Of a DNA stretch of 64,000 nucleotides, positions 16,873-47,330 are shown piece after piece. Both the position numbers and the translations under genes were made by a program. Source of the stretch: a virus (taxonomy: Duplodnaviria > Heunggongvirae > Uroviricota > Caudoviricetes); IMG/VR virus record IMGVR_UViG_2541047857_000009. One strand, 5' to 3'. The notes beneath the pieces are model-generated. The model was given only the letters and a program-made list of their open reading frames with translations. It did no database searches and was not told the origin of the DNA. Position 1 is the first letter of the stretch. Each line of letters begins with the position of its first letter.

Positions 16873-17009
16873 AGCCAGAAGCGCTCGAGATAATCCGCAC
16901 TCGTTGGCAGCGACTCCGTATTTACCGCCGCCCTGGATCCGTGCTGGTTGACTACCGAATCCTTCGAAACTTCGTCCGCATTTATCATCAAGCAGGAGCC
17001 ACACAATGA
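16869..17009 (+). CDS. YlcG-like small protein
   Basis: 46-aa ORF, ATGA-coupled to rusA. Confidence 0.3.
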
Positions 17010-17695
17010 ACAGTCAGCAACTGGAATACGTACGTCAGCAGCTCATTGTGGCGACCGCCGATCTGAGCGGGGCGACGAAAGGCCAACTGGTAGCTTTCGC
17101 CGAGAACGCGCAATTCACCGCTACAGCGCGTAGCCGGGGCCGGAAGAAAGTTTATGATGTGCAGAAAAAGCGCATGGTTAACCCTGATAGTCCGCCGATG
17201 AGCGGCAGCCAGTCCCGCGCCAAGGGATCGTCAATCGCTCTGGTGTGCCCGGTAGAGTTCATGACAGCATCATGGCGCCGCGCTGTCTTGTCTCTTGACG
17301 ACCATCAGAAAGCGTGGCTGCTGTGGAACTACAGTGAGAACATCCGCTTCGAGTACCAGGTGGCGATCACCCATTGGGCGTGGTCAGAATTCCGGGAGCA
17401 ACTTGGCGCGAAGAAGGTGGCTGGCAAGACGATGGAGCGCCTGAAGAAGCTTATATGGCTGGCGGCGCAGGACGTTAAAGCGGAGCTGGCGGGGCGCGAG
17501 ACGTACGAATATCAGGCGCTGGCGGAACTAGCGGGTGTTGCAAAATCAACCTGGACAGAGACGTATCTGCCTCACTGGCTGGCAATGCGTAACAGCTTTA
17601 AGCGACTCGATAGCGGTGCGCTTATCTCAGTAACGCGATCACGTTCACAACAAAAGGCGACAAATTTGGATGTAAGTCTTGCAAAACCGAACTGA
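17006..17695 (+). CDS. putative late antiterminator (Q position)
   Basis: 229-aa ORF between nin genes and lysis cassette, followed by terminator-like hairpin; family not verified. Confidence 0.4.
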   Translation: MNSQQLEYVRQQLIVATADLSGATKGQLVAFAENAQFTATARSRGRKKVYDVQKKRMVNPDSPPMSGSQSRAKGSSIALVCPVEFMTASWRRAVLSLDDHQKAWLLWNYSENIRFEYQVAITHWAWSEFREQLGAKKVAGKTMERLKKLIWLAAQDVKAELAGRETYEYQALAELAGVAKSTWTETYLPHWLAMRNSFKRLDSGALISVTRSRSQQKATNLDVSLAKPN

Positions 17696-17761
17696 AACGC
17701 ATATATTTCATGTAAATATGATATCGTCGCCATAGCTTTGATTGTCGACTGAATATAAAAA

Positions 17762-17790
17762 CCTCGCCACCGTGCGGGGTTTTGTCGTTT
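17762..17790 (+). terminator. tR'-like terminator downstream of Q-like gene
   Basis: CCTCGC/GCGGGG stem (one G.U) plus T-rich tract. Confidence 0.4.
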
Positions 17791-17801
17791 CTGGAGCCAA
17801 C

Positions 17802-18128
17802 ATGTCCGAGAAAATCACAGAGCAATTGGTCTTTCGCCCTGCCAGTGAAAAACTGACAAAGGATCTGGATGGTGAGTGGGTGATTCTGCTCAATCCATGC
17901 GATGGCTGGCATATTGCCCATGTGGTGGCGCTGGAAGAGGATGGCGAGGTCTACCATGTCGGAGCATATCAATTTGCAGGCGGCGAGTTCGAGCCGCACG
18001 AATTTTATGTTGCCTGGGCTTTGCTTCCAGACTCAATAAAACTGTCTGATCGCTTTGAAGATCAGAGGATGAGTCAAGAAATTAGAGACGCTCGCTGGCG
18101 TGAATGGACAGCCAGCATCAATAAGTGA
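17802..18128 (+). CDS. hypothetical late moron protein
   Basis: 108 aa with GGAG RBS; sits between Q and lysis genes. Confidence 0.4.
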   Translation: MSEKITEQLVFRPASEKLTKDLDGEWVILLNPCDGWHIAHVVALEEDGEVYHVGAYQFAGGEFEPHEFYVAWALLPDSIKLSDRFEDQRMSQEIRDARWREWTASINK

Positions 18129-18143
18129 TTTCAAACCAAATTC

Positions 18144-18218
18144 GCCGGTCTAGTTCAGTGGCAGAACGGCAGCCTTGTAAGCTGCGCGTCAGAGGTTCGA
18201 TTCCTTTGCCCGGCACCA
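18144..18218 (+). tRNA. tRNA-Thr (anticodon UGU)
   Basis: Cloverleaf read by hand: acceptor 6/7 pairs, D-arm GTTC/GAAC, anticodon stem GCAGC/GCTGC with loop CTTGTAA, T-loop TTCGATT, CCA encoded. Confidence 0.7.
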
Positions 18219-18275
18219 GAACCCACTGCCTGGGACCCTTCGGCCATAGAGCCGGCATTGCCTTACCCTCACATT

Positions 18276-18298
18276 GCCAGCCTGTCGCTGGCTTTTTT
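18276..18298 (+). terminator. rho-independent terminator after tRNA
   Basis: GCCAGC-ctgtc-GCTGGC plus T6. Confidence 0.7.
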
Positions 18299-18382
18299 AT
18301 TTTCAGGCTCCGGGAACCATCATCGACACGCCTACTTGTTAAATCGTCCCGAGGGCCTGAACCAACTACACACGGAATAAAT

Positions 18383-18784
18383 ATGTCTGAGACCTTCACT
18401 ATCGTAGGCGTTGGTCTTACATCGTCATCAGTCGGTGTAACCTTTGCCACGCTGTTTCCGGAGGCGACTCCAGCAGTGATGCTCGGATCACTCGCCGGAA
18501 CTGCGCTATACGTTCTGACCTCAGATCCCCATCAACTCTGGAAGCAGGCTATCTTTGCGCTGATATCGTTTATCAGTGGCGTGTTCTTCTCCGTACCCAT
18601 GGCGAAAATCATGGCCGGAATCATCAACACGCCGTTAAGCCTGATGAAGCCACCAGCCAGCATTGAGGTATCGCCAGCTGTCGGTGCAATTGTCACTGCT
18701 TCCATTTCCGTGGCAGTCCTGCTGCGTATTCTCCGCAAATCCAAAAGCGGGAAGATGCCGGGGCTGGGGGAGGAAGATAAATGA
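18383..18784 (+). CDS. holin-like membrane protein
   Basis: 133 aa with hydrophobic segments, first gene of lysis cassette. Confidence 0.5.
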   Translation: MSETFTIVGVGLTSSSVGVTFATLFPEATPAVMLGSLAGTALYVLTSDPHQLWKQAIFALISFISGVFFSVPMAKIMAGIINTPLSLMKPPASIEVSPAVGAIVTASISVAVLLRILRKSKSGKMPGLGEEDK

Positions 18785-19056
18785 CATGGCAGCTTCTTCT
18801 GATGGATGCAAACGCCATAGTTTGCCTGTTAATCATGGTCAGGCTGATGTTTTTCCGGAAAGAGGGAAAGCGTCATCGCCTGAGTGTCGCGGTGCTGGCC
18901 TACCTGGTCATACTTGCCGCCGGATTCAACGCCTTCAACATTCTGCTCGGCCACTACGTTCAGGTTAACCTTGGCGACCTGCTGCTGAACTCCGTCATAT
19001 GCATGGCGGTGTGGCTGGCGCGTGGGAACCTGGCGAAGGTCGTTATAACGGAGTAG
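18781..19056 (+). CDS. holin/antiholin-like membrane protein
   Basis: 91 aa, two to three TM segments, overlaps neighbours. Confidence 0.45.
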   Translation: MTWQLLLMDANAIVCLLIMVRLMFFRKEGKRHRLSVAVLAYLVILAAGFNAFNILLGHYVQVNLGDLLLNSVICMAVWLARGNLAKVVITE

Positions 19057-19059
19057 TCC

Positions 19060-19500
19060 ATGCAAACCAGCGAAAAGGGCATTGCCCTAATCAAAGAATT
19101 CGAAGGCTGTAGACTCACTGCTTACCAGGACAGCGTGGGCGTATGGACGATCGGCTATGGCTGGACTCAACCTGTGGATGGAAAACCAATCCGCGCCGGG
19201 ATGACTATCAAGCAGGAAACAGCAGAACGTCTGCTGAAGACCGGGCTGGTCAGCTATGAAAACGACGTGTCCCGCCTGGTTAAAGTCGGCTTGACTCAGG
19301 GGCAATTCGACGCCCTGGTGTCGTTCACGTATAACCTCGGCGCTCGGTCATTGTCGACATCGACACTCCTGCGAAAACTCAATGCCGGTGATTACGCTGG
19401 TGCTGCTGATGAGTTCCCGCGCTGGAACAAAGCAGGTGGCAAAGTCCTGAACGGGCTAACCCGTCGGCGTGAGGCGGAGCGCGCTCTGTTTCTGTCGTGA
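19060..19500 (+). CDS. endolysin (GH24 lysozyme)
   Basis: IKEFEGCRLTAYQD...WTIGYG catalytic region of T4/P22-type lysozymes. Confidence 0.8.
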   Translation: MQTSEKGIALIKEFEGCRLTAYQDSVGVWTIGYGWTQPVDGKPIRAGMTIKQETAERLLKTGLVSYENDVSRLVKVGLTQGQFDALVSFTYNLGARSLSTSTLLRKLNAGDYAGAADEFPRWNKAGGKVLNGLTRRREAERALFLS

Positions 19501-19883
19501 TTAGCGCACTGGTTAAGCGTTACTGGCTGCAACTGATTGTGGTGGCGGTAATCGGCGTGCTGGCGTTCTTCGTGAACCACTACCGCGACAACGCCATTAC
19601 CTACAAAGACCAGCGCGACAAGGCGACGGTCAGGGCAGATACATCGGAGGCGATCACCAGCAACGTGATCACCACGATGAACCTCATCCGTGACATTTCA
19701 CAGGCTACCCAGAATGCAAAGAACGAACTGGCCCATAAAGGCGAAACGCGCATTGTCTACATCAGGCAGGCGCTTGAAGGCGATCCGTGCGCTAACCAGC
19801 TTGTTCCTTCTGCCGCTGCTGACAGCCTGCGGGAATACGCAGACAGTTTACGTTCCGGCCCCGGTGGTTCCGATAAGCGCTGA
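19497..19883 (+). CDS. Rz-like i-spanin
   Basis: N-terminal TM helix then coiled-coil periplasmic domain. Confidence 0.55.
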   Translation: MISALVKRYWLQLIVVAVIGVLAFFVNHYRDNAITYKDQRDKATVRADTSEAITSNVITTMNLIRDISQATQNAKNELAHKGETRIVYIRQALEGDPCANQLVPSAAADSLREYADSLRSGPGGSDKR

Positions 19884-20034
19884 CCTGACAGCTGACACGC
19901 CGATCCCCGGAATTACGGTTCCGTTCACGTGGCAGGCAAGTCTGGAGTTAAACGCTCAGCTCTACACGGCGCTGGGGCAGTGCAATCTGGATAAGGCTGC
20001 GATCAGGAAAATTGAAGAAGCGAGAAAAAAATAA
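19714..20034 (+). CDS. Rz1-like o-spanin lipoprotein (start uncertain)
   Basis: +1 frame overlapping Rz; lipobox LLTAC then Pro-rich segment; TTG start at 19774 also possible. Confidence 0.45.
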   Translation: MQRTNWPIKAKRALSTSGRRLKAIRALTSLFLLPLLTACGNTQTVYVPAPVVPISADLTADTPIPGITVPFTWQASLELNAQLYTALGQCNLDKAAIRKIEEARKK

Positions 20035-20127
20035 ATTGAATTCGAGAAATGAAAGTAGTAAAAGTCAGTCATGCTGTGAGCAGACCAGCTGAAGAGAAAT
20101 CACCAAGTATCAAAAACAAAATTCTGA

Positions 20128-20153
20128 GCCTCGGCAATCGCCGGGGCTTTTTT
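20128..20153 (+). terminator. rho-independent terminator after lysis cassette
   Basis: GCCTCGGC-aatc-GCCGGGGC plus T6. Confidence 0.6.
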
Positions 20154-20306
20154 GTATCCGCATTTCACCGCGCACCGCAGCGCATTCAACCCACGTCGAA
20201 CCATACCCTTTGAAATGAGCCTTTGAGGAAGTCAGTTAGTGCTGGCGAGCCTCGACGGGCTGATTTCCTATGCGGCAAAGGTTCATCTCAAAGAAAGGTA
20301 CACGCT

Positions 20307-20852
20307 ATGACATATCCAACTGTGATCGTGAATGGTGTCTCTGTCCGAGTGGACGAGAAGGGGCGCTATAGCCTGAATGATCTTCATGCCGCCGCTGTCC
20401 TGAAAGGTGAGGCTACTGAGTCACAAAAGCCGGGCAAGTTTATTCGTAGTGCATCAGTAAAGCGTTTCGTTCAGGCGCTGGCAGGCAAAGGACAAAAATG
20501 TCCTTTGGAAGATAACCAGGCACTTAGAGTAATTCGCGGTGGTGACGAGCCCGGCGTATGGGCTGCAGAGCTACTCGCTATTAGATATGCCGCCTGGATT
20601 AAGCCGGAGTTTGAAATCCGCGTTTATGAAACCTTCCGCGAGGCTGTGCTCAACGGTCTTAGCAATATGAACCGACTCAACCGACTTGACCTGCTGATCG
20701 CCAATGAGACCAAAGAGGTCAGCGCATGTGCCCGGGCAATGAATAAGTGGGGCGTCGGTGGTCGCAAGAAGCTTCTCAATTGCGCTCGTGAGCGGATCGT
20801 CAGCCAGATGGACCCTGACATGGTCACGCTTATGGAAGCGAAAGCAGGGTAG
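20307..20852 (+). CDS. KilA-N domain protein
   Basis: N-terminal VRVDEKGRYSLNDLHAAA...KPGKFIRS pattern typical of KilA-N. Confidence 0.5.
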   Translation: MTYPTVIVNGVSVRVDEKGRYSLNDLHAAAVLKGEATESQKPGKFIRSASVKRFVQALAGKGQKCPLEDNQALRVIRGGDEPGVWAAELLAIRYAAWIKPEFEIRVYETFREAVLNGLSNMNRLNRLDLLIANETKEVSACARAMNKWGVGGRKKLLNCARERIVSQMDPDMVTLMEAKAG

Positions 20853-21081
20853 CCAACGCAGAATTGCGTCGGCAAATAGCGGCATTACAGAAGCTCTTCA
20901 CTGAGGGGCTTCGATAATGACAAGCAGAGGTAAATTATGATTGGCACCCTAACCTATAAAATGACACTTCGCCCATACATGAAGCCCTTGCTGTTTGTCG
21001 CGGCAATGACTAACTGGCACTGGTTAACCGATATCTGCTTCAAGAAAGAGATTGTCGCAGAAGGCGCGAAGGTGGAGCTAA

Positions 21082-21300
21082 ATGGCTGACATCTACCAAA
21101 TCACGCTAACCACCCAAACAGGCGAAACCTTCACGGGCAAGATGTCACGACGTCAGCCTGAGCTGGTTAACGGCTTTGTGCCGCTGGCGACCGAAACGGG
21201 GCAGTGGCTGTACTTCGCTCCTGCTGATGTAAAGCGTGTGGAGTTCACGCCAGTACCTGAAGAGCAGACCGAACAGCCAGAAGAACAAACAACGGAGTAA
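21082..21300 (+). CDS. hypothetical protein
   Basis: 72-aa ORF. Confidence 0.35.
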   Translation: MADIYQITLTTQTGETFTGKMSRRQPELVNGFVPLATETGQWLYFAPADVKRVEFTPVPEEQTEQPEEQTTE

Positions 21301-21303
21301 CTC

Positions 21304-21936
21304 ATGGCAAGCGACGAAGAGAAAAGGCCACTGCCGAGTTCAGCATTCGTCGAAGAGTTCGCGCCATACACAAGACTGATTCCAGCTGATGGCGTGTGGC
21401 AGTGGGTACAAGCGAACATCATTGCCGAATCAGGCCACCTGCATAACCCCGACCATATTCATCTGGCAGATGCTGATATCGGCTTCCTTTGGGCTGCTAA
21501 TGCTTTCTCAAAGAAAGGGCGCACTGTTCTCGGGCAGGCCGAAGAAGTTATGTTTCGCGCTGGCGGGTGGCAAAAAGCCCGCATGGAGCAGCAGATGTAT
21601 GAATGGTTCGGGCATAAGCCGGATTACATCATTACCCTTGCTGGCGACTTCTGCCTTAAGTGCTCTGATCTGGAATTCTGCGCCCTGATTGAACATGAGC
21701 TTTACCACATCGCCCAAGAGGTTGATGAGTTCAGCGCTCCCAAGTTCTACAGAGACAGTGGTTTGCCAAAACTTTGCATGCGTGGTCATGACGTCGAAGA
21801 GTTTATCGGCGTGGTTCGCAGATACGGCGCAAGCTCTGATGTGCAGGAATTGGTAGACGCTGCAAACAACCCCGCCGAAGTGGCGAAAATTAACATAGCC
21901 AGAGCATGCGGAACGTGCATGCTGAAGCTGGCTTAA
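21304..21936 (+). CDS. HExxH-motif protein (putative zinc metallopeptidase-like)
   Basis: 210 aa containing IEHELYHI. Confidence 0.4.
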   Translation: MASDEEKRPLPSSAFVEEFAPYTRLIPADGVWQWVQANIIAESGHLHNPDHIHLADADIGFLWAANAFSKKGRTVLGQAEEVMFRAGGWQKARMEQQMYEWFGHKPDYIITLAGDFCLKCSDLEFCALIEHELYHIAQEVDEFSAPKFYRDSGLPKLCMRGHDVEEFIGVVRRYGASSDVQELVDAANNPAEVAKINIARACGTCMLKLA

Positions 21937-21966
21937 ATTTGTAATGCTTTGGAAGGATGGTGATTC

Positions 21967-22422
21967 ATGGCTGCACTAAAACCAGAGGTGAAAGCCGCCA
22001 TCGTTCAAATGCTTGCGTGCTATGACACCCTGTCGATTGTGGTCGACTCCGTCCAAAAAGATTACGGGATAAAAGTCACCCCGCAGCAAGTCGAATCGCA
22101 CGACCCGACTAAGGCCAGCGGGAAAGGGCTGGCGCAGAAATGGGTAGAACTATTCAACGAAACCCGCAAGCGCTTCCAGACAGAAATCAGCGACATCCCG
22201 ATCGCTAACAAAGCCTATCGTCTGCGCGCGCTCGACCGGATGATGACCAACGCCGAGAAGATGCGAAACATGGCTCTTGCCGCATCGCTAATGGAGCAGG
22301 CGGCGAAAGAGGTTGGCGATGCGTACAGCAACAAACAGAAGGTCGAGCACACCAGTCCGGACGGAAGCATGACGCCGAAGCCGACCATTATCCAGTTACT
22401 ACCCGTTGAGCCTAAAGCATGA
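21967..22422 (+). CDS. putative terminase small subunit
   Basis: 151-aa ORF immediately upstream of and overlapping large terminase. Confidence 0.45.
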   Translation: MAALKPEVKAAIVQMLACYDTLSIVVDSVQKDYGIKVTPQQVESHDPTKASGKGLAQKWVELFNETRKRFQTEISDIPIANKAYRLRALDRMMTNAEKMRNMALAASLMEQAAKEVGDAYSNKQKVEHTSPDGSMTPKPTIIQLLPVEPKA

Positions 22423-23666
22423 GTGAAGCCGTTCAACTGCCGATCCCAGCGAAGCTTGCACCGCTGTTCACTGCTGTGAATAAGCGCTACCGGTGCTCGC
22501 ACGGAGGACGTGGTAGCGCCAAGACGAGAACATTCGCCTTGATGACTGCCGTAAAGGCGTATCAGGCGATGATGAACGGTGAAAGCGGTGTGGTGCTCTG
22601 CGCTCGCGAATTTATGAACTCGCTGGAAGAGTCGAGTATGCAGGAGGTGAAACAGGCGATCCTGTCTGTTCCGTGGCTGGCTTCCAACTTTGATATCGGC
22701 GAGAAGTACATCCGCACCATCGACAAGAGCGTTAACTACGTGTTCTGCGGTCTGCGGCATAACCTCGACAGCATCAAGTCGAAAGCGCGCATCCTGCTGT
22801 GCTGGGTTGATGAAGCGGAATCAGTCAGCGAAATTGCCTGGCAGAAGCTGAGCCCGACCGTTCGTGAAGAGGGGTCAGAGATTTGGGTGACGTGGAACCC
22901 GGAGCGAGACGGTAGCGCCACGGATAAGCGTTTCCGCAAAGAGGCAGGCGACGACTGCATCACCGTTGAAATGAACTATACGGATAACCCGTGGTTCCCT
23001 GATGTGCTGGAAGGCGAGCGACAGAACGATCAGCGCCGCCTCGACCCGGCAACATACGCATGGGTGTGGGAAGGGGCTTATCTCGAAAACTCCGATAAGC
23101 AGGTACTGGCCGGGAAATACCGGATTGCTGAGTTCTCGGACCAACTATGGAAAGAGGCCGAACGTCTGTTCTTCGGTGCTGACTTCGGTTTCGCCAAAGA
23201 CCCTAACACGTTGGTGCGTTCGTTCATCCTGCATAACCGGCTGTACATCGAATACGAGGCATACGGTCAGCAAACTGAGCTCGACCACATGCCAAAGCTG
23301 TACGACACGATTCCAGGTGCGCGTGACTGGCCCATTAAAGCCGACTCCGCTCGACCCGAGACGATCAGCTATCTAAAGCGGCAGGGCTTCAACATCTCAG
23401 CCGCTGAGAAATGGCAAGGAAGCGTTGAGGACGGGATCGCACACCTTCGCGGATTCGACGAAATCATTATCCATCCGCGCTGCAAGAATGTGGCGCGAGA
23501 GGCCCGCATGTGGTCGTACAAAACAGACCGCATTACTGGCGAGGTGCTGCCGAAACTGGCCGACGGCTATGAACACTGCTGGGACGGTATCCGCTACAGC
23601 CTAGACGGGCACATTAAGCGTAAAGGCCAGATGGCCGGGATGATGATCCCAAAACGGCTGCGATAA
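22419..23666 (+). CDS. terminase large subunit
   Basis: 415 aa; ATPase Walker A-like GGRGSAKT, conserved LCAREFMNSLEES and C-terminal nuclease region. Confidence 0.8.
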   Translation: MSEAVQLPIPAKLAPLFTAVNKRYRCSHGGRGSAKTRTFALMTAVKAYQAMMNGESGVVLCAREFMNSLEESSMQEVKQAILSVPWLASNFDIGEKYIRTIDKSVNYVFCGLRHNLDSIKSKARILLCWVDEAESVSEIAWQKLSPTVREEGSEIWVTWNPERDGSATDKRFRKEAGDDCITVEMNYTDNPWFPDVLEGERQNDQRRLDPATYAWVWEGAYLENSDKQVLAGKYRIAEFSDQLWKEAERLFFGADFGFAKDPNTLVRSFILHNRLYIEYEAYGQQTELDHMPKLYDTIPGARDWPIKADSARPETISYLKRQGFNISAAEKWQGSVEDGIAHLRGFDEIIIHPRCKNVAREARMWSYKTDRITGEVLPKLADGYEHCWDGIRYSLDGHIKRKGQMAGMMIPKRLR

Positions 23667-24009: not shown

Positions 24010-25359
24010 ATGAATGACAAATTAACTCTCGCCGTCAACCATGCGTTGAACGATGCGCGGATGGCTCGCGCCCGTATGGGGCTGATGGCGCCTACAATGG
24101 GGCTGGACAACAAGCGCCACTCTGCATGGTGCGAGTATGGATTCCCTGAGCAGGTAACCTACGAAAACCTTTATGCCCTGTACCGACGCGGTGGTATTGC
24201 CCACGGCGCAGTAGAGAAACTGGTGGGCAAGTGCTGGCAGACTAACCCGGAAATCATCGAGGGTGATCAGGCAGACAAAAAGCGCAAAGAAACCGCCTGG
24301 GAGAAAAAGGCCAAACAGGTATTCACCAACCGATTCTGGCGCTCATTCTCTGAGGCCGATCGCCGTCGTCTGGTGGGCCGTTATGCTGGCATCCTTCTGC
24401 ACGTCCGCGATGAAAAAGACTGGAACCTTCCGGTAACCAAAGGGCGAGGTCTTCAGAAAATATCGGTGGCGTGGGCAGGATCGCTTACGGTGAGCGAGTG
24501 GGACACTGGCCTGAACTCGAAGACGTACGGCCAGCCTCAGATGTGGCAGTACGCCGAACGCTTGCCGAATGGTTCAAGTCGCCGCGTCAATATCCACCCC
24601 GATCGCGTTTTCATCCTTGGTGATTACTCAGACGATGCTATTGGCTTCCTTGAGCCAGCTTATAACGCCTTTGTAAGCCTGGAGAAGGTAGAGGGTGGAT
24701 CCGGCGAGTCATTCCTGAAGAACGCCGCGCGCCAGCTTAATGTCAACTTTGAGAAGGAAATCGACTTCAACAATCTTGCGTCACTTTATGGCGTGAGCAT
24801 TGACGAGTTGCAGGATAAGTTTAACGAAGTTGCCGGGGAAATGAACCGTGGCAACGATGTTTTGATGACAACCCAAGGGGCCACGGTCACACCGCTGGTG
24901 ACTGCTGTAGCTGATCCTTCAGCGACCTATAACGTCAACCTGCAAACGGCTGCCGCCGGTGTTGATATCCCGACGCGCATTCTGGTTGGTAATCAGCAGG
25001 CCGAGCGCTCCAGCACCGAAGACCAGAAATACTTTAATGCTCGTTGTCAGTCGCGACGCGTAGACCTCTCTTTCGAAATAGAGGACTTCTGCGACAAGCT
25101 TATCGATCTACAAATCGTAGACTCAGTCAGTCAGAAGGCTGTTATCTGGGATGACCTTAACGAACAGACCGGTACTGAGAAGCTCACTAACGCCAAGACC
25201 ATGGGCGAAATTAACCAGACCATGCAGGGCAGCGGCGAAGAGCCAGCGTTCAGCCGTGAAGAGATTCGTACAGCTGCGGGTTATGACAATGACGACGAAG
25301 AGCCGTTAGGAGAAGAGGATGGCGACGAACAAGACGAAGCCACCAATTCTACCGCGTAA
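24010..25359 (+). CDS. portal protein
   Basis: 449-aa ORF after terminase; acidic C-terminus. Confidence 0.65.
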   Translation: MNDKLTLAVNHALNDARMARARMGLMAPTMGLDNKRHSAWCEYGFPEQVTYENLYALYRRGGIAHGAVEKLVGKCWQTNPEIIEGDQADKKRKETAWEKKAKQVFTNRFWRSFSEADRRRLVGRYAGILLHVRDEKDWNLPVTKGRGLQKISVAWAGSLTVSEWDTGLNSKTYGQPQMWQYAERLPNGSSRRVNIHPDRVFILGDYSDDAIGFLEPAYNAFVSLEKVEGGSGESFLKNAARQLNVNFEKEIDFNNLASLYGVSIDELQDKFNEVAGEMNRGNDVLMTTQGATVTPLVTAVADPSATYNVNLQTAAAGVDIPTRILVGNQQAERSSTEDQKYFNARCQSRRVDLSFEIEDFCDKLIDLQIVDSVSQKAVIWDDLNEQTGTEKLTNAKTMGEINQTMQGSGEEPAFSREEIRTAAGYDNDDEEPLGEEDGDEQDEATNSTA

Positions 25360-37636: not shown

Positions 37637-40100
37637 GATATCGAATTTTCCAGGAACGCCTAAGCTGCGTTGCAGGGTGCCAAACGGCACCCTTTTTTAT
37701 GACTGGCTGGCGGCCAATGATGGTAACTTTCACCGCGATCTGCTGATCGTCCGCAACGGCGTAAAGTTGGGCGAAGATGATGAGCTGGCGTTTGAGCTAT
37801 GCGAACTGGACACCGTCCAGATATTCGACCAGCCGAAGGGCATCATTGGCGACATTCTCAGCCCGATCTTCAAAGTTGTCGGCGCGGTATTCTCTTTCCT
37901 TGCGCCAAAGCCGGCGATCGCCAATACAGGCGGCAACACGATTGACTCGCCAAACAATAGCCTGACCGGCCAGACGAATACGGCGCGCGTCTACAAAGCA
38001 AAACCGGACATCTACGGACAAATCCGTTCGTTCCCGGACCTGATTCAGGAGTCGCTTTTCGAATACGTGCGCCAGAGCGACACGGATGGCGGCCTGAAGT
38101 ACGTTACTGAGTGGATGTGCATCGGGATCGGCAAATATGATTACGAGTCTGTGCGTTATTCAGAGTCCAGCCTAGGAAGTATGGCCGGTGCAGAGTTCCA
38201 GTTTTACCAGCCGGGTGAAGTGATCCCTACCATCAACGAAGGCTACGGGTTCGACGACGTGGATGGCCAGGAAGTGCCCGGGCAAAACGAATCGGATAAT
38301 TTCCCGATCGAGACTGCTACGGCTACTACGGTTGTGAGCGGAACTTACTCCGGCGGGCAGATTGCGGTAAAAATTATCAAGCAGGCTGAGTTTGATTACT
38401 TCATGGGCCTGGTCCTGCCGCACGCCGTTACTTTTACGATTAACGTCACCTACAGCACGCCAACCGGCAACGTAACGCAGGATGTCGATTTCTCCGGCAC
38501 GCTGATATCGGCTGTCGAAACAAACGACGGCGCGGTGGTTAACCCGGTCCGGTGGTACACATTCACGATGAGGGATCTAATTGGCCCTCCTGACGTGCCG
38601 GCAACGGCGACTATTAACACGACGAAGTTCATCCTTAACGATAACGAAGCGCTAGTGGTAGGCCCGTTCTTCTCGCCGGTCGAATCTGCCCAGTTATGGC
38701 TGCACACTCAGGTGCAGCTGGGCGGCAAAAAGTCCGCTGACTGGAAGGTCACGATCTGGAAAATTGACGATTACTACAACCAGGTGCCGGGTACTCAGCA
38801 GACGTTCACGTATCATCAGGGGACGCCGCACAAATCATCGAGCGAAGTATTTTACCGTACCGATAAGCTGACGCCGACCGGCGGTTTCGGCAAGTACGCT
38901 ATTAACTTCCAGCGCACAGATAACTCGAGTGATGCCTCTATCCTGAAGGTTGAGGAGATCCACTCGGTCAACGTCAGAACCAACGTCGTGCATCCAACCG
39001 ATACGCTGGTGCGCGTGAAGGTAAGGGCGACGGAGAACGCCCTGGGCAGCCGTGACCGCAAGTACAACGCACTGGTGACGCGTCAGACCATCAGTTACAA
39101 CCTGACGACGCAATCGGTGGATTACACCCTGCGGGCCTCGCGCTCGTTCGCTGATGCAGTGGCGCATACCTGGCTGATTATGGGCGAGCAGCCGGTAAGT
39201 AGCATTGACCTGTACGGGCTGTACTCGATTGCCGAAAGTCTGCCGGATGAGCGCCTGGGTTACTTCGACTACACGTTTGACGACGAGAACGATTCGTTGG
39301 GCGACAGGGTGCAGGCTATCTGCAATGCGGCCTCTGTCATTGCGTACTGGGACGATGGCGTGCTGACGTTTACTCGCGATCAGAAGGTTGAGTACCCGGC
39401 GGCCGTATTCAACCGGGCCAACATGAAGACGGACGAGTACAAAATGACGTACGAGGCCACTCTTCCTGGCGGTTACGACGGCGTGCAGGTGTCCTATGTT
39501 CACCCGACCACGAACAACAAGACGTACATCAACTATCGCGTGCTGAACGGCGCCATTGTCGAACAGGAAGCGCAGAACCCGAACAAGCTCGAGATTGTCG
39601 GCTTCCGTAACGAGTATCAGGCGCGTGAGCGCGCGCTGCGAGAAACCAAACGCCTGATTTACTCACGCGTGAATATGAACGCAAAAGTGTTCGAGGACGG
39701 CATTATCCAGGTCGGTAGCGTCATTCAGATGCCCGACATCTACGACAGCAACCAGCAACAGGGTTACATCACCGGGCGCGCCGGTAATAACTTTGATACC
39801 AGCGAGCCGATCACGTTTACCGGTTCGATGTATGTGCTGGTGACAGACAGCCTGGGTAACCCGACGCTGCGCTATCCAGCGGCGGCGCGTGGCGACACGA
39901 AGTACGGATTCACCGCGGCTATCCCAAACATTCAGCTCAATATCTGGAACGGAGACACTGTGCAGCTCCCGTCGCGCTATCTCATTGCGACAGAGGAGGA
40001 ACTGGACAGCCAGCTATGGACGGTCAACAGCATCAAACCGAACACAGATAACACGGTATCTCTGACAGTCGCGGAATACAGCGACGCCATCTACGAATAA
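37623..40100 (+). CDS. tail tip / host-specificity protein (J-like)
   Basis: 825-aa ORF in distal-tail position. Confidence 0.6.
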   Translation: MALVEISNFPGTPKLRCRVPNGTLFYDWLAANDGNFHRDLLIVRNGVKLGEDDELAFELCELDTVQIFDQPKGIIGDILSPIFKVVGAVFSFLAPKPAIANTGGNTIDSPNNSLTGQTNTARVYKAKPDIYGQIRSFPDLIQESLFEYVRQSDTDGGLKYVTEWMCIGIGKYDYESVRYSESSLGSMAGAEFQFYQPGEVIPTINEGYGFDDVDGQEVPGQNESDNFPIETATATTVVSGTYSGGQIAVKIIKQAEFDYFMGLVLPHAVTFTINVTYSTPTGNVTQDVDFSGTLISAVETNDGAVVNPVRWYTFTMRDLIGPPDVPATATINTTKFILNDNEALVVGPFFSPVESAQLWLHTQVQLGGKKSADWKVTIWKIDDYYNQVPGTQQTFTYHQGTPHKSSSEVFYRTDKLTPTGGFGKYAINFQRTDNSSDASILKVEEIHSVNVRTNVVHPTDTLVRVKVRATENALGSRDRKYNALVTRQTISYNLTTQSVDYTLRASRSFADAVAHTWLIMGEQPVSSIDLYGLYSIAESLPDERLGYFDYTFDDENDSLGDRVQAICNAASVIAYWDDGVLTFTRDQKVEYPAAVFNRANMKTDEYKMTYEATLPGGYDGVQVSYVHPTTNNKTYINYRVLNGAIVEQEAQNPNKLEIVGFRNEYQARERALRETKRLIYSRVNMNAKVFEDGIIQVGSVIQMPDIYDSNQQQGYITGRAGNNFDTSEPITFTGSMYVLVTDSLGNPTLRYPAAARGDTKYGFTAAIPNIQLNIWNGDTVQLPSRYLIATEEELDSQLWTVNSIKPNTDNTVSLTVAEYSDAIYE

Positions 40101-40122
40101 GAACCGTCCCCGACAAACCTAA

Positions 40123-40147
40123 CCCGGCCATCGCGCCGGGTTTTTTT
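40123..40147 (+). terminator. rho-independent terminator between tail-tip gene and tail fibre gene
   Basis: CCCGGC-catcgc-GCCGGG plus T7. Confidence 0.65.
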
Positions 40148-40158
40148 ATGGAATAAAT

Positions 40159-42741
40159 ATGGCCACTACACCTACTAATCTGCCAGTACCTAGCGAATCC
40201 CCGCGCGACCTGAAATTTAACGCAGGGAAAATTGATGAGTTCGTGACTTCATTCGCTCTTAGTTATATTGACCGCTTTGGAGATGAACACTACACGATTG
40301 AAGGATTAAGATGGCTTGCACAGCGGGCTATAGCTGAATTTGGATGGATACCTATCGGGACATTTCAGAGCGGCGCTGTTATAACTCTACCAAATCAAAT
40401 ATTAAAAGATGAAAATGATGGAGAATACTATAGATGGGATGGGCCGCTTCCTAAAATCGTTTCTCCTAATTCAACACCTGATAGTGCCGGGGGAATAGGT
40501 AAAGGCAAATGGATAGGTGTAGGCGATGCCAGCTTACGTAGTGCTATTACTGAGACAACGAAAAAATACACTACATTTACAGACGCCATCAATTCTACTA
40601 TTGATCTAGTTATCGGGTGCGTTATTACTGGTGGAAGAGTTTCCATCAATGACGGAGGTGGCGGCATATACGTCAGGAACGGAACTGGCACGGCAGGAGA
40701 TACAGATGGAGGAAGTTACTTTGTTACCCCTGATGGGTCAAGGTTTGACTTAGTATCACCTGCAAATATTTCAACTTTTGGCGGCGTTCCTGGGCATGAC
40801 TACCGTGCTGCTCTTGACGGTATAAAATCGTATGTTTCAACAAGAGATAAGGTAATTAGAATTAATTCTAAAACTATTGTTAGTATGGTATTTACACCAG
40901 AGATTCCTGCTGGATACTGGAATGGATTCATACTTGACGTAGATGATAGCGTGACAATTAATACCGCAAGCGATGAAGCTGTCAAATCACCATTGGTAAA
41001 ACTTGTCAGACCTGTAAAATTCTTTTTTACTGGTAATAGCACCAGTTATTTATTACGTTCAAGTGTTGGAATTACAAAAGGTGAATATACACCACTTGTT
41101 CCAGGTACATTACCAACTCCGCCGATCATAAAAAATGCAAACTACACAGATAATAAAACGTTATTTTGTGATATTCAGGATAAAGAAACTCCGGTCTTGA
41201 CGGTTTTTACCTCTGGATGGTCTTTTCTGTCAGGTGTATGGCCTATGGGTGTTGTTGCGGATACACCTGCAGCGTCACTGGCTGGGGATGCAGTATCAAT
41301 TCCAGCCCCTACAGGGAATCTTGTTTTTGCTGCATACAGCAGAGTGAAGCCGTGCTCTGAATATTTCTTGTCGATGTATGAGGGTGACAACACCGGTGGT
41401 CTGCCATGCGTTGTGGTTGAAGCTGAAAGTATGCGTTGGATCTATTACGAGGATCATTTTGGACATGGTAATTTAATTGAGGGAACAATTGGCGGAGCAT
41501 ACTCTACAAAAAGCATTGCATATGCTGGATCTGATACTCATGCTTCACAATGGCTAAAAAACAGTATTGCATCCGTTCGTGTTGATACGCTTAAGTCATT
41601 CACTATCCTGGTTAACGGGATAGAGCGAGTTACAATTCGTCAAACCGGGAGAATCATTGGTCGTGTAGGATTTGGATCACTTGGCGATGGCGGTAAGTAT
41701 ATGTCTGTCTTCTATCCATACATTATCGAAAATCGACAATACCGCTCTGCAAAACCGATAAATATCGCTGTTGTAGGCGATTCAATCACTGATGCCTCTA
41801 TGGGAAATGGATGGGTACAGTTCGCGCAACAAGCACTAGAAGGAACTCACGGCATTCGCGTTGGACGTATGCAGACAATTGCAATAAATGGGTATGCATC
41901 AGGAGATATCGCTAATATATTTAATGTCACATCGTTGGATGATATCGATGTAGTGCTTTTCCAAATCGGAGTGAATGATATTCAAAGGCAATCCGGACGA
42001 GAGGCATTACGAAATAACGTTAAGCAGATGATGCTGACTGCAAATAACCTTGGGATTCCCTGCATTGTATCTTTGCCTACACAGTTCTATACCAGAGATC
42101 AGAGTGTTACGTTAACCGGGGTTGCTGGTTATGGACAGCCTTCGGCAAATTACGAGCTTGGGGCGCTTTACAGGGCGATACTTGCCAGCACAGTAGCTGT
42201 TCGTAATACAGAGGTTAATCAGCCGCTTAATGCCCTGAATACTGGTTCTCTTGACGATCTCGGACCAATCGTAGCCGAATATCTCCTGACAAATCAGGAC
42301 CCTGTTGTTATGGACAACATTCACCCGACCACATACGGAAGAATTCTTCTCGGCTTGTCAAATGCCAGAGCTATTGCATCACATATGTTCGGTAGACGTA
42401 ATGATCCTATAATTAACCACTGGATGCCAGGTGCGTGGGGGGCAAATAACTGGTCAGTAACTTCACTGGTTCGTGCTGCTGTAACATCATATCCCGATGG
42501 TAAAATTGCATTAACTGGCACTATCGCTAACATCGGAACAGGTATAACCGCCGACGGTACGACAGTATGCAACCTTCCGTTGAGCATCTCGCCAGTTAGG
42601 AAAATGGCATTTTCTGTTACAAAACTTGATGCAAGTGGCCTCCCTATTGGACAGGGTAATATTGTTATTGATACAAATGGAACTGTTAAAATATACGGAT
42701 TTCAAACGGGGAATGTGTCACTAGACGGGGTGTTATATTGA
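40159..42741 (+). CDS. tail fibre/tailspike with C-terminal SGNH (GDSL) esterase domain
   Basis: 860 aa; SGNH blocks IAVVGDSITD, QIGVNDI and DNIHPT; low GC. Confidence 0.65.
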   Translation: MATTPTNLPVPSESPRDLKFNAGKIDEFVTSFALSYIDRFGDEHYTIEGLRWLAQRAIAEFGWIPIGTFQSGAVITLPNQILKDENDGEYYRWDGPLPKIVSPNSTPDSAGGIGKGKWIGVGDASLRSAITETTKKYTTFTDAINSTIDLVIGCVITGGRVSINDGGGGIYVRNGTGTAGDTDGGSYFVTPDGSRFDLVSPANISTFGGVPGHDYRAALDGIKSYVSTRDKVIRINSKTIVSMVFTPEIPAGYWNGFILDVDDSVTINTASDEAVKSPLVKLVRPVKFFFTGNSTSYLLRSSVGITKGEYTPLVPGTLPTPPIIKNANYTDNKTLFCDIQDKETPVLTVFTSGWSFLSGVWPMGVVADTPAASLAGDAVSIPAPTGNLVFAAYSRVKPCSEYFLSMYEGDNTGGLPCVVVEAESMRWIYYEDHFGHGNLIEGTIGGAYSTKSIAYAGSDTHASQWLKNSIASVRVDTLKSFTILVNGIERVTIRQTGRIIGRVGFGSLGDGGKYMSVFYPYIIENRQYRSAKPINIAVVGDSITDASMGNGWVQFAQQALEGTHGIRVGRMQTIAINGYASGDIANIFNVTSLDDIDVVLFQIGVNDIQRQSGREALRNNVKQMMLTANNLGIPCIVSLPTQFYTRDQSVTLTGVAGYGQPSANYELGALYRAILASTVAVRNTEVNQPLNALNTGSLDDLGPIVAEYLLTNQDPVVMDNIHPTTYGRILLGLSNARAIASHMFGRRNDPIINHWMPGAWGANNWSVTSLVRAAVTSYPDGKIALTGTIANIGTGITADGTTVCNLPLSISPVRKMAFSVTKLDASGLPIGQGNIVIDTNGTVKIYGFQTGNVSLDGVLY

Positions 42742-42777
42742 AGGTAAGGGGTGATAAAACACCCCTATTTTATTGCA

Positions 42778-43863
42778 CTAAATAAAACGCCTTGTAAATT
42801 TTGCTATTTTTTTCTCAATCAACGAGTGAACTAAGCACCCTGTAATAATGCTAAATAACACATAAAAAGCAAGGTACATAAATACACTGGTATGCAGATG
42901 TAGTTCCAGTCGCTCCCACCAGTGCGCAAGCAATGATGTAAATAAGCCATGTATGAGGTATATGCAGTACGAAGCATTACCTAAGTAAACTAATATATTC
43001 GGAGTCTTTACTTTACCCTCAAGGCTAATTGTTGCCCATACGATGTAAAAAGAAAACGCTCCCCATATAAGAGGTCTGTGCCATAAGTTCCCTACATACG
43101 TAGTTATTAAATATTTTTCAAGGATATAAAATAAAGGCAACGAACAAATCAATATAGCAGTAGCAAGTTTGGCGTTAAGAAATATTTTTGATATGTACAG
43201 TCTGTACATAAACATACCCAAAGCAAACTCAATCATTACTGGCTGAGAGATTACCTCAATTGGAGGGAAATACGCTTTAATAAAATTTGCGGCATGCTCG
43301 TTTTTAACTAAAATGTTACAAACGATAACTATTGTCACAAATGAAATTTCTATTTTCTCTATTTTTGAAACGCCAATTGCAATAAAAATAGCGAAGATAG
43401 CATAAAAGAAAAATTCAAACTGAAGAGTCCACCCAACACCTAGTATTGGTCCCTTATCCCAATGGGTGAACGTTATGCTCCTAAAAAAATACACTAAATC
43501 TATTTTATCAGATGGAAACCAAAAAAGTAACGGTCTTGCTGGGGAGGTGATTTGGTATGAAACCAAATAAGAGACATAAACAGCACATGCCGTAAGGATA
43601 ATATATAAAGGAAGTATCCTAACCAATCTTCTTAAAAAGAACTTTGCCGCTGAAATATTAAATGGCCCATCAGCTTTTTTACCTCCATAAGCAATAAAAG
43701 GCATTATAAACCCACTAATTATAAAAAATATATCAACACCTATACCACCAAGGCCTGACATCCTTATTCCATACATTACAATCTCAGAATGTGCAATGAC
43801 GACAATCAATGCGGCAAAGAAGCGCAATACCTGTATGTTATAAATTGTTTGTTTGTTATCCAT
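42778..43863 (-). CDS. acyltransferase family 3 (OafA/OatA-like) integral membrane protein
   Basis: 361 aa, about 10 TM helices, N-terminal LRFFAALIVVIAHS motif; AT-rich; convergent with tail fibre. Confidence 0.7.
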   Translation of the reverse strand: MDNKQTIYNIQVLRFFAALIVVIAHSEIVMYGIRMSGLGGIGVDIFFIISGFIMPFIAYGGKKADGPFNISAAKFFLRRLVRILPLYIILTACAVYVSYLVSYQITSPARPLLFWFPSDKIDLVYFFRSITFTHWDKGPILGVGWTLQFEFFFYAIFAIFIAIGVSKIEKIEISFVTIVIVCNILVKNEHAANFIKAYFPPIEVISQPVMIEFALGMFMYRLYISKIFLNAKLATAILICSLPLFYILEKYLITTYVGNLWHRPLIWGAFSFYIVWATISLEGKVKTPNILVYLGNASYCIYLIHGLFTSLLAHWWERLELHLHTSVFMYLAFYVLFSIITGCLVHSLIEKKIAKFTRRFI

Positions 43864-44177
43864 TTTTTAATAATTGGTAATTACGTGCTTAAGGTTCCAA
43901 AAGATTCCAGTTATTCACTGGGGCTGTAAGATTTTAACATCAATGCTTGATGGTTGACACACTGAATGCAGTTTAATATTTAATAACAACAAAATAATAA
44001 CCAACTGTAATTAGCATGCTATAAATAACGTTGAAGATTACATCTCATGCTTCTATATCGCAGTAAAGTCAACATAGATTAACTTCTGCTTTTCCATCCA
44101 CAACTTTATCTCAAGCTACAACAACAAGTTGCATGCTAACTATTTCACGGTACTTGATGTGCGCTCTGTAAGAGTAG

Positions 44178-44197
44178 TACTGTATGTATAAACAGTA
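44178..44197. promoter_or_regulatory. LexA (SOS) box upstream of umuD'
   Basis: TACTGTATGTATAAACAGTA fits CTGT-N8-ACAG. Confidence 0.8.
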
Positions 44198-44215
44198 TTT
44201 ATGGGAGTGCAAATC

Positions 44216-44587
44216 ATGGAGTCCCAATTCCCCGCAGCAGATTATGCAGTAGAGCGTATCTCACTGGACGGCAGGATCATTACAAGCCCAGCGTCGACAT
44301 ATTTGATGCTGGCAGCAGAGACTATCTGGCGCGCAGGCATTATGAAAGATGCAATGCTTGTCGTGGACAGCGCTGTACATCCCATTGATGGTTCTATTAT
44401 CGTATGCCAGTTCAACGGTGAACTTCGTCTTAAGCGCTTGAGGTTAGCTCCTGCTCGATGCCTTGAAGATCTTAACTATCCAGACCGGCATCAGATGCTG
44501 ACGTCTGAAACTCTCATTATGGGAGTTGTGACATATATCATCAACGATGCCCGTAGTGGTGAGTTTGACGACAGCCCGGTGATCTGA
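44216..44587 (+). CDS. umuD: UmuD'-like protein lacking N-terminal cleavage segment and catalytic Ser
   Basis: Aligns with UmuD from about residue 26; GDSM replaced by ETIW; Lys retained (LKRLRL); GGGAG RBS. Confidence 0.65.
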
Positions 44588-45855
44588 TGTTTGCCCTGGT
44601 TGATGTAAATTCATTTTATGCGAGTTGTGAGACGGTATTCAGGCCTGACCTGAAAGGAAAACCGGTTGTTGTGCTGTCGAATAACGATGGCTGCGTGATT
44701 GCGCGCTCTGCTGAAGCGAAACTGCTCGGCGTCAAAATGGGTGACCCGTACTTCAAACAGAAAGACCTGTTCACGCGGTGCGGAGTTGTCTGCTTCAGCA
44801 GCAATTACGAGCTCTATGCGGACATGTCCAACCGGGTGATGACAACGCTCGAAGAGATGTCGCCGCGCTGCGAAATATACTCAATAGACGAGGCTTTCTG
44901 TGACCTTACCGGGGTTCGTAATTGCAGAGTTCTGGAAGACTTTGGACAGGAACTAAAGGACGCTGTATACCGTAACACGCGGCTTGCTGTCGGCGTTGGG
45001 ATAGGGCAGACAAAGACACTGGCGAAACTGGCAAATCATGCTGCAAAACGATGGCAGCACAAGACAGGTGGAGTTGTTGACCTGTCTAACGTCGAGCGTC
45101 AGCGCAAACTGATGGCAGCACTTCCTGTTGATGAGACATGGGGAGTGGGCCGGCGCATTACCAAAAAGCTCGAGGCTATGGGGATCAAGACGGTTCTCGA
45201 CCTGGCTGATACTGACATACGATTTATTCGTAAACATTTTAATGTGGTTTTGGAAAGGACTGTGCGTGAGCTGCGAGGAGAGCAGTGTCTAGAACTGGAA
45301 GAGTTTGCACCCGTAAAACAAGAGATTGTATGTAGCCGCTCATTCGGCGAACGAGTCACTGAATACGATGCAATGCGGCAGGCTATCTGTAGCTACGCGT
45401 CGCGAGCAGCGGAGAAGTTGCGTGGAGAGCATCAGTATTGCCGGTTTATCTCTGCGTTCGTCAAAACGTCACCATTCGCGCTTAATGAGCCATATTACGG
45501 TAACAGCGCATCGGTGAAGTTGCTGACACCGACGCAAGATAGCCGGGACATCATTGCGGCGGCCACTAAGTGCCTTGATGCTATATGGAAAGATGGTCAC
45601 CGATACCAGAAAGCGGGCGTGATGCTCGGAGACTTCTTCAGTCAGGGCGTCGCACAACTTAACCTGTTTGATGACAATGCACCTCGCGTCGGAAGTGAGA
45701 AGCTGATGGAAGTTCTGGATCAACTCAACACTAAAGGCGGGAGAGGTACGCTGTATTTTGCAGGGCAGGGCATCCAGCAGCAGTGGGCGATGAAACGAGA
45801 AATGCTTTCGCCGCGGTACACAACAAGATTTTCCGATCTGCTGCGCGTTAAGTAA
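44587..45855 (+). CDS. umuC: UmuC, Y-family translesion DNA polymerase subunit
   Basis: 422 aa; [15 protein letters not shown]...SIDEAF Y-family signature; ATGA-coupled to umuD'. Confidence 0.85.
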
Positions 45856-46519
45856 CGAGTTCAATCAACTCCGGCCCCTGATTTTTCACATTACCAACGG
45901 AGCGCGTCACGGCGTGCCAGATAAACTTGTCGGCGGAAACCGCTCCGTCGGCTGCTATCTCTTCCGCTTCTTTCCCGCCTATATCCTGGCGCATCCACTC
46001 ACGGGCCGCTTCAGGTGACAGAACAAGCGGCCGTCTGTCGTGAATGTCGACCAGTCCTTTATCAGCTGCAGATGTCACTATCAGAAAGCCCTCAGCGTCA
46101 TCACCGCGCTCAAATGGCGTGCTGCCTATAGCTGCCATAAAGATTGGCTGACCGTCGGCACGGTGAATGAAGTAGGGCTGTTTCTTGTCGCCTTCCTTTT
46201 TCCATTCGAACCAGCCATCAGCAAAGCAGATCGCCCGGCCATGTTGCCAGAGAGGTTTGAACATTCGGCTGGTGGCTGCGGTTTCGACGCGTGAGTTAAT
46301 CAGCGGCGGTTTATCCCACCACCCGGGAGCGTATCCCCAGAACACTGGATCGAGATGCAGCTGCTCGTCGCGTTCGCTCAGCAGCAGAACTTTGGTGCCT
46401 GGCGCAACGTTGTAGCGTCCAATCGGCTCCGGGTCGTACGCGATGTCGCGATCGGCTTCATCCGCCAGGTAAGCCAGGTATTCTTCACGCGTTTGAGCTT
46501 GTGCAAAACGTCCACACAT
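45848..46519 (-). CDS. SOS response-associated peptidase (SRAP/YedK family)
   Basis: 223 aa starting MCGR with catalytic Cys2; 3' end overlaps umuC by 8 bp. Confidence 0.75.
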
Positions 46520-46681
46520 AGGAACCTCCAGCCAGATGTCAGACTGAAAGTATAGGGTAGGGAGAAAAAACTGGTGCGCACCGAAACTCTATGATTTTGA
46601 AACAGGGGCATGATGATGGAAGTCATCGAGGCGGTAAAGCGGGGTTTTGCGAAACTGGAAGGAGCTACGCAAAACGCAGCT

Positions 46682-46726
46682 GAAAAAAAAGCACGCTTCG
46701 TACAAAGTGTACATTAAAGCGTGCTT
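46682..46726 (-). terminator. terminator downstream of yciB
   Basis: 10-bp stem AAGCACGCTT/AAGCGTGCTT with nested GTACA..TGTAC loop, T-tract on minus strand. Confidence 0.6.
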
Positions 46727-46793
46727 TTAATCATAATTTCATGTCAATATCATAACTAACTAATTGAAATTGATGTGTTTTAAGTGTTATTTA

Positions 46794-47330
46794 TTACTTC
46801 TCTTCCTGCGGCATGTGGCGGTAGATATAGATACCGCTTAACAATGTGAAGATTAAGGTAAGGGCGGTCAGGCCAAAGACTTTAAAGTTGACCCAAATAT
46901 TTTGCGGCAGCCAGAATGCGATGTAGATGTTTGCCAGACCGCAAAGGATAAAGAAAACAGCCCAGGCCAGATTCAGCTTCGACCATACCGATTGCGGCAG
47001 GGTGAGTTCTTTACCCAGCATCCGCTGAATTAGCGGCTTTTTCATCACCCATTGGCTGACTAACAGGGCACCCGCAAACAGGGCATAAATGACAGTAACC
47101 TTCCATTTAATAAACTCATCATTGTGGAAGAACAGCGTCAAGCCACCGAAGACGACCACCAGAACAAAAGTGATCAGGGCCATCTTCTCAACCTTACGAA
47201 AGCGAACCCAGCTATATATAAGCACAATCGCCGTGGCGACGATGAGCGCCGCAGTAGCCGCATAGATGTCATAAATCTTGTAAAACGCGAAAAAGACAAC
47301 CAGCGGTAAAAAATCAAGAAACTGCTTCAT
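46794..47330 (-). CDS. yciB: YciB intracellular septation protein
   Basis: 178 aa, near-identical to E. coli YciB as recalled. Confidence 0.85.

Follow-up and report, generated by a model that had tools for sequence, protein, structure and literature searches.

A lambdoid prophage with a humD-umuC operon and a convergent SRAP gene near its right end: a probable damage-inducible lesion-bypass cassette

The stretch of viral DNA analysed here (IMG/VR record IMGVR_UViG_2541047857_000009; 64,000 nt, called the window below) carries, near the right end of a lambdoid prophage, a cassette of three genes. The first is a short humD-type gene for an analogue of UmuD', the second is umuC, and the third, of the SRAP/YedK type, converges on umuC from the other strand. 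The first two genes follow a LexA box, and we think it likely that the cassette is damage-inducible and provides a pre-processed HumD which, together with UmuC, gives an enzyme like DNA polymerase V (Pol V). The features of the locus are as follows.

44154-44159, plus strand: probable -35 hexamer TTGATG, proposed from conservation across loci
44178-44197, plus strand: LexA (SOS) box TACTGTATGTATAAACAGTA, 20 bp, overlapping the probable -10 hexamer TACTGT (44178-44183)
44203-44207, plus strand: ribosome-binding site GGGAG, 8 nt before the ATG at 44216, as read from the sequence
44216-44587, plus strand: humD-type gene, probably for a pre-processed UmuD' analogue of 123 aa in which Thr stands for Ser60 and Lys97 is present, with a C-terminal tail
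44587-44588, no strand: mosaic junction of two phage modules, exactly at the humD stop and umuC start
44587-45855, plus strand: umuC, 422 aa, the catalytic subunit of a Y-family polymerase of the Pol V type
45848-46519, minus strand: SRAP/YedK-type gene, 223 aa, convergent on umuC
46520-46797, no strand: element-specific spacer from SRAP to the right insertion end (attR region), covered by 9 genomes only

A sequence-only reading of the window had proposed that the UmuD homologue begins just after the position where UmuD is cleaved, and this has held. The open frame spans 44201-44587 on the plus strand. Its real start is most likely the ATG at 44216, since the GGGAG motif stands 8 nt ahead of it and the start called by PGAP in the chromosome of E. 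coli 20A24 (NZ_CP147044.1) agrees. A longer N-terminus is excluded because the LexA box itself contains a TAA in frame with the gene (44189-44191). A remnant of the UmuD arm was sought upstream in three frames and none was found, all the frames being rich in stops. Met1 falls in the alignment column of UmuD Cys24 (Cys24/Gly25 is the cleavage site), and residues 5-111 align with residues 4-113 of the UmuD' structure 1UMU (UmuD 28-136; HMMER E 2.6e-12).

By its profile scores, the protein is a member of the recognised HumD family and no ad hoc truncation. It reaches 151.4 bits on the NCBIfam equivalog model NF051876 (HumD family translesion DNA polymerase; cutoff 120), over profile positions 6-129 of 129. 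On the NCBIfam model for UmuD it scores 65.7 bits, below the cutoff of 110, and on Pfam Peptidase_S24 25.3 bits (cutoff 23.3). Identity to P1 HumD, N15 gp26, phiKO2 gp23 and HK639 gp28 is 49-53%, and a profile search of 1.84 billion representatives returned 22 clusters at E <= 1e-30. The core of the AlphaFold model has a pLDDT of about 90. Its best Foldseek matches are UmuD' (1UMU and 1AY9), followed by the C-terminal domains of LexA, and the predicted structure has the S24 beta-barrel fold. Some relatives are labelled 'LexA family transcriptional regulator', a label we rejected, as the 123-aa protein has no DNA-binding domain.

The sequence-only reading also had the catalytic serine lost and the lysine kept. 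The alignment (AA-ETIW against ASGDSMI) bears this out in that Thr stands where UmuD has Ser60, one residue of the GDSM motif being deleted, and Lys97 is retained. What does not stand is the idea of a simple loss. Among the 115 HumD family representatives on which our conservation counts are based, 98 have Thr in place of Ser60 and 9 have Ser, the residue of P1 HumD. At the Lys97 position 88 have Lys, 15 Met and 7 Arg. The start Met lies in the UmuD C24 column in 111 of the representatives, and in 106 the second residue is a Gly aligned with UmuD G25. In the window protein two marks of a self-cleaving S24 protein are missing: the N-terminus has no Ala/Cys-Gly segment for cleavage, no start lies further upstream to provide one, and without a Ser nucleophile the Ser-Lys dyad is not intact. 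The family thus has no cleavage substrate and generally no Ser nucleophile. The start position, the lack of an arm upstream and the lack of the dyad also favor the earlier proposal of a UmuD' that would be active without cleavage.

The conserved Thr could be viewed differently. Its conservation, and that of Lys97, in positions whose flanks vary freely would suit a Thr/Lys pair that still works as a peptidase in trans, on host UmuD, LexA or a phage repressor. We regard this as very improbable. The Gly-Asp-Ser-Met motif is broken by the deletion, members of the family with Met, Arg or Leu at K97 exist, and the residues at the two sites are unrelated in more distant pre-truncated relatives. A Thr nucleophile in an S24 peptidase would, to our knowledge, be without precedent.

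The distant relatives deserve a word of their own. Many proteins of 115-126 aa (P0144-P0260) start precisely where UmuD is cleaved, with the sequence M[GA]FPSPA.DY. They have no Ser and often no Lys, with unrelated residues at these positions, and they have no HumD tail. Because so many of them were found, pre-truncated UmuD' analogues seem to be a wider and little-studied class that extends beyond the HumD family. Not every short entry belongs there. The deposited 80-aa 'UmuD-like protein' of Salmonella phage vB_SosS_Oslo (L007:3495-3998) begins at the internal Met of GDSM. In the open frame a full-length UmuD (MEFFRPTELREI...) is encoded, preceded by a LexA box, and the short entry is therefore an annotation error.

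The expression signals of the humD-type gene are equally family-like. The perfect CTGT-N8-ACAG box noted earlier directly upstream of the gene was confirmed at 44180-44195, and it is the single occurrence in the 64-kb window. The longer pattern TACTGT-N8-ACAGTA (12 specified bases) was found in none of 100 shuffles, and the full box TACTGTATGTATAAACAGTA matches 18 of the 20 positions of the consensus TACTG(TA)5CAGTA. The gap from the end of the box to the ATG is 18 bp. In nearly all HumD loci examined, P1 included, the LexA box is 34-37 nt ahead of the start codon, and in umuD loci 33-38 nt. The P1 record annotates the site ahead of humD as a LexA binding site, and loci of Citrobacter amalonaticus (L011-L014) have boxes with one mismatch at the corresponding position. 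In the window TTGAT[GC] stands 17-18 nt 5' of TACTGT, as it does at other HumD loci and at umuD of E. coli D9, XJ55 and K-12; the box therefore overlaps the probable -10 hexamer. We infer from the arrangement that the humD-umuC promoter is controlled by LexA.

A skeptic might still see in the humD-type gene a 5'-truncated, decaying remnant of umuD, a pseudogene next to which only umuC or SRAP matter. The protein does have neither the N-terminal arm nor the Ser nucleophile, and it barely passes the Pfam Peptidase_S24 cutoff. We give this view next to no credence, however. The HumD equivalog cutoff is exceeded, and start codon, ribosome-binding site and SOS box are at the positions conserved in the family. 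Decay from umuD is also at odds with the absence of any arm remnant upstream and with the nearly invariant C-terminal tail described below. In comparison with the Citrobacter ortholog the dN/dS of humD is 0.14, across a dS of 0.93, which indicates that the gene is under purifying selection in this comparison and is not a pseudogene.

The coupling of humD to umuC, claimed earlier, is seen in the one base shared by the humD stop (TGA, 44585-44587) and the umuC start (ATG, 44587-44589). The resulting TGATG junction is identical in umuDC of K-12. UmuC matches the NCBIfam model NF002955 over its full length (1-422) with 854.7 bits (cutoff 431) and contains the Pfam domains IMS, IMS_C and DUF4113. 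Its translation shows D6, F10-Y11, SIDEAF (D101/E102) and QLNLF, which we take to be the catalytic Asp/Glu residues, the steric-gate Tyr and the clamp-binding motif. The protein is 85.8% identical in amino acids to UmuC of K-12 and 96.9% to that of the Citrobacter cassette, and umuC is strongly constrained (dN/dS 0.025 vs Citrobacter).

The third gene was recognized before as a YedK/SRAP gene converging on umuC, their 3' ends sharing 8 bp, and so it is. In architecture its product is almost the same as E. coli YedK. The protein scores 171 bits on Pfam SRAP (PF02586) and 473.7 bits on NCBIfam NF007413 (cutoff 349), and phmmer matches it to the E. coli YedK structures 6KCQ, 2ICU and 6NUA at E 4e-136. 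Cys2, Asn75, Glu105 and His160 are identical in the alignment to YedK 6KCQ. The dN/dS of SRAP is 0.025-0.057 (0.025 vs Citrobacter). A LexA-like box was sought upstream of SRAP and none was found, even at two mismatches; a generic scan for promoters and terminators likewise returned nothing for SRAP. By its position, the SRAP promoter must lie in 46520-46797. According to Aravind, Anand & Iyer (2013, PMC3765255), SRAP genes occur beside umuCD and also within temperate phages, and the link between UmuC and SRAP is also mentioned in a 2026 survey.

How might the cassette work? LexA would repress a promoter whose -10 hexamer lies in the SOS box. Upon cleavage of LexA, one transcript would be made, from which HumD and UmuC would both be translated, coupled through TGATG. 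HumD would be made already 'processed', having no 24-residue N-terminal arm and a Thr in place of the Ser nucleophile. Because of this, a HumD dimer is expected to join UmuC directly and form a Pol V-like translesion polymerase. HumD2-UmuC would skip the slow RecA*-mediated conversion of UmuD to UmuD'. It would also skip the UmuD2C checkpoint and the degradation controls that act through the missing arm. Activation by RecA-ATP would presumably still be needed. The CI repressor of the prophage is an S24 autoprotease by its Peptidase_S24 domain, and therefore one SOS signal could induce the phage and supply lesion bypass at once. The YedK-type SRAP protein, made from its own promoter without a LexA box, would shield abasic sites in single-stranded DNA. 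We infer the HumD2-UmuC complex, its activity in the absence of cleavage and any gain for phage or lysogen.

Several observations weigh against this scheme of a pre-processed HumD acting with UmuC. The generic promoter scan found no sigma-70 site for the humD promoter. The scan missed the proposed -35 and -10 elements because TACTGT fits TATAAT at just 3 of 6 positions, and the promoter proposal was therefore built on conservation across loci. The N-terminus of the window protein, MESQFP, is atypical and found in one of the 115 representatives, the family norm being MGFPSP. Removal of the initiator Met from MGFPSP would reproduce the N-terminus of UmuD'. With Glu at position 2, the initiator Met of MESQFP is probably retained, and the arm in the window therefore differs from that of UmuD'. 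The UmuD' arm reaches the active site of UmuC in Pol V models (PMC12926913). Finally, the Thr and Lys97 pair may hold some residual function, since both residues are conserved beyond what neutral decay would leave.

The atypical N-terminus also bears on whether HumD is the activating subunit of its neighboring UmuC. It might be mainly a modulator or inhibitor that titrates host UmuC, RecA filaments or SSB partners for the phage. Most humD genes are solitary: among viral loci outside the 123-aa subclade with at least 1.3 kb of sequence downstream, umuC follows humD in 0 of 32. Other E. coli prophages have, as a solitary gene, an allele 98% identical in amino acids to the window protein. The disordered acidic tail, conserved in the family and missing from UmuD, could also serve such a role. 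The translational coupling to an intact and strongly constrained UmuC speaks against it, as does the retention of the cassette across genera. Also, in the P1 record humD carries the note 'functionally complements E. coli UmuD''. The 1999 work of McLenigan and colleagues reportedly found P1 HumD to be UmuD'-sized, to dimerise, to bind UmuC and RecA filaments, and to restore mutagenesis. P1 HumD is also said to be without a cognate umuC. On balance, a main role as modulator is unlikely, if worth keeping in mind, and we prefer the view that HumD of the window serves as the partner of UmuC.

The C-terminal tail (HumD residues 112-123; window 44549-44584) merits separate consideration. The GEFDD[CS]PV[MI]-type tail is the most conserved part of HumD, being invariant or nearly so in 64 aligned members, and it is missing from UmuD. 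It is acidic and predicted to be disordered (pLDDT <50), and as judged from its conservation it may be a short linear interaction motif. The tail (...GEFDD[CS]PV[MI]-COOH) is similar to the C-terminal tip of SSB, MDFDDDIPF-COOH (PMC10164576). A literature search returned nothing on the C-terminal tail of HumD. One can go further and speculate that the tail mimics the SSB tip and that, in addition, SOS-driven read-through from umuC silences SRAP; taken together, the two ideas are a long shot. If the mimicry were true, pre-activated Pol V subunits made by the phage would join, or compete for, the SSB hub at stalled forks, a layer of control of translesion synthesis not available to host UmuD'. 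If the read-through were true, the terminator-less overlap of umuC and SRAP would silence the shielding of abasic sites exactly when error-prone bypass starts.

A similar tail is present in another family. Enterobacter phage CobraSix gp29 (L120:2196-2501) is a small UmuC-coupled protein with the C-terminal tail ...FTDDNPVM. Its gene has its own LexA box and is coupled by ATGA to a umuC whose product is 83% identical to UmuC of the window. Proteins of the gp29 type have no Pfam hit and make up a second family, matched by the HumD profile over the last 26 residues only, with tails ...DDNPVM or ...DENPFM. An open reading frame (ORF) of this type lies directly 5' of full-length umuD in E. coli D9 (L022:5077-5385) and XJ55 (L021:4979-5380). 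The family may be another accessory subunit of UmuC.

The cassette is the last cargo before attR, inside a complete lambdoid prophage of E. coli inserted between yciA and yciB. The sequence-only reading had placed it beside yciB as horizontally acquired, prophage-adjacent cargo. The neighbor and the acquisition, which came with the prophage, are right; the cassette lies within the prophage rather than next to it. The prophage begins with an integrase beside yciA, followed by Red functions, the CI repressor, the genes for replication, Q and lysis, those for head and tail, a GDSL tailspike, an acyltransferase and the humD-umuC-SRAP cassette. A core repeat of the att sites was sought between the yciA-integrase and SRAP-yciB spacers and only chance-level matches of 8-10 bp were found. 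The right boundary was therefore taken from comparison with prophage-free genomes: of the 5,423 E. coli genomes that match, 5,414 show homology only from 46798-46801 of the window (the yciB stop) onward. SRAP is beside yciB in 9 of 5,426 E. coli genomes. Positions 43900-46800 are identical to the 20A24 chromosome. The region ~16500-22980 is not colinear with it: a segment of about 5 kb (Q, lysis and small terminase) is replaced (net gain 977 bp), and the window therefore comes from a different but related strain, which has a recombinant version of the 20A24 prophage.

Some other genes and features of the prophage may be mentioned here. The spacer between SRAP and the prophage end contains a 35-codon ORF, MMMEVIEAVKRGFAKLEGATQNAAEKKARFVQSVH (46611-46718, plus strand), with AGGGG just upstream, which the 20A24 record leaves unannotated. 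Its 3' end is overlapped by an inverted repeat (GCACGCTT...AAGCGTGC) that a T run follows. A homologue of the theta subunit of DNA polymerase III is encoded at 14554-14808 on the plus strand (Pfam DNA_pol3_theta, 119 bits). In phage P1 the theta homologue hot is about 750 bp upstream of humD, with only lxr between. Amid the head genes (24010-25359, plus strand) is a gene annotated in 20A24 as an anti-CBASS Acb1 family protein.

Comparison with other prophages indicates that the cassette is a mosaic of two modules. The left part, 38217-44588, is 91% identical to prophages (L031) in which a solitary humD, the 98%-identical allele, is followed by an integrase. To the right, homology to the prophages of E. 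coli D9 and XJ55 begins at 44587, with nucleotide identities of 71-72% in umuC and 84-86% in SRAP. These sister prophages, at the same yciA/yciB site, have a full-length, cleavable 139-aa umuD, then umuC, then SRAP. Thus the left part matches the solitary-humD prophages and the right part the umuD-umuC-SRAP sister prophages. The left module comprises the GDSL-esterase tailspike, the acyltransferase and humD. It moves between phage backbones as a unit, since the solitary-humD prophages are integrated elsewhere, beside mlaA and a gene of the formate/nitrite-transporter family.

The complete cassette is rare. It was found in 2 of 5,426 complete E. coli genomes, and among 50,697 phage and 72,556 plasmid records on deposit none contains 80% or more of it. 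The same umuD'-umuC-SRAP arrangement, which the sequence-only reading had suggested looking for in other mobile elements, is present with the same overlaps at the prophage ends of Citrobacter amalonaticus and in four IMG/VR prophages. The common types of HumD are solitary and lie between tail or O-antigen-modification genes and an integrase or the prophage end. No paper on a humD-umuC operon was found in the text of the open-access literature.

In the SOS response, UmuD cleavage classically serves as the timer by which error-prone synthesis is held back, and workers have long got around it with engineered umuD'C constructs. The locus described here is a natural operon of the umuD'C type. A pre-truncated UmuD' has been known since 1999 (P1 HumD), and all three genes receive their correct names from the current NCBI models. 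The uncommon feature here is a natural humD-umuC operon with a convergent SRAP, allelic to sisters that carry umuD and to prophages with solitary humD. These three make a natural allelic series in which one may ask what is gained by removing the RecA-cleavage checkpoint. If the proposed scheme is true, SOS mutagenesis in lysogens could be faster and possibly higher, which would bear on the evolution of antibiotic resistance.

Among known systems, P1 HumD (McLenigan et al. 1999, J Bacteriol 181:7005), together with N15 gp26, phiKO2 gp23 and HK639 gp28, is the closest to the window protein in kind: the family, the UmuD' size, the start at the cleavage site and the tail are shared, and in P1 a LexA box lies about 35 nt upstream as well. 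P1 humD, however, is solitary and must use host UmuC, whereas humD of the window is coupled to its own umuC. P1 HumD also has Ser at the Ser60 position where the window protein has Thr. The window N-terminus is MESQFP, not MGFPSP, and one loop is 6 residues shorter than in P1 HumD.

In the layout of the operon the likeness is rather to umuDC of E. coli, with an SOS box over the -10 hexamer, a small subunit of the S24 fold followed by UmuC, and TGATG between the two genes. umuDC, mucAB, rumAB, impAB and samAB all encode a cleavable precursor of the UmuD type, with an arm, a Cys/Ala-Gly site and the Ser-Lys dyad, whereas the window has no precursor stage. The D9 and XJ55 sister prophages share with the window the site, the phage tail, the acyltransferase, the cargo layout and the convergent umuC-SRAP pair; the 8-bp overlap of umuC and SRAP in D9 is identical to that of the window. 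They differ in having a 139-aa umuD annotated as autoproteolytic, a small degenerate HumD-like ORF upstream of it, and a UmuC 83% identical to that of the window. Finally, in the known SRAP/umuCD neighborhoods the partner gene is umuD, whereas in the window it is of the humD type, and SRAP is convergent with overlapping stops.

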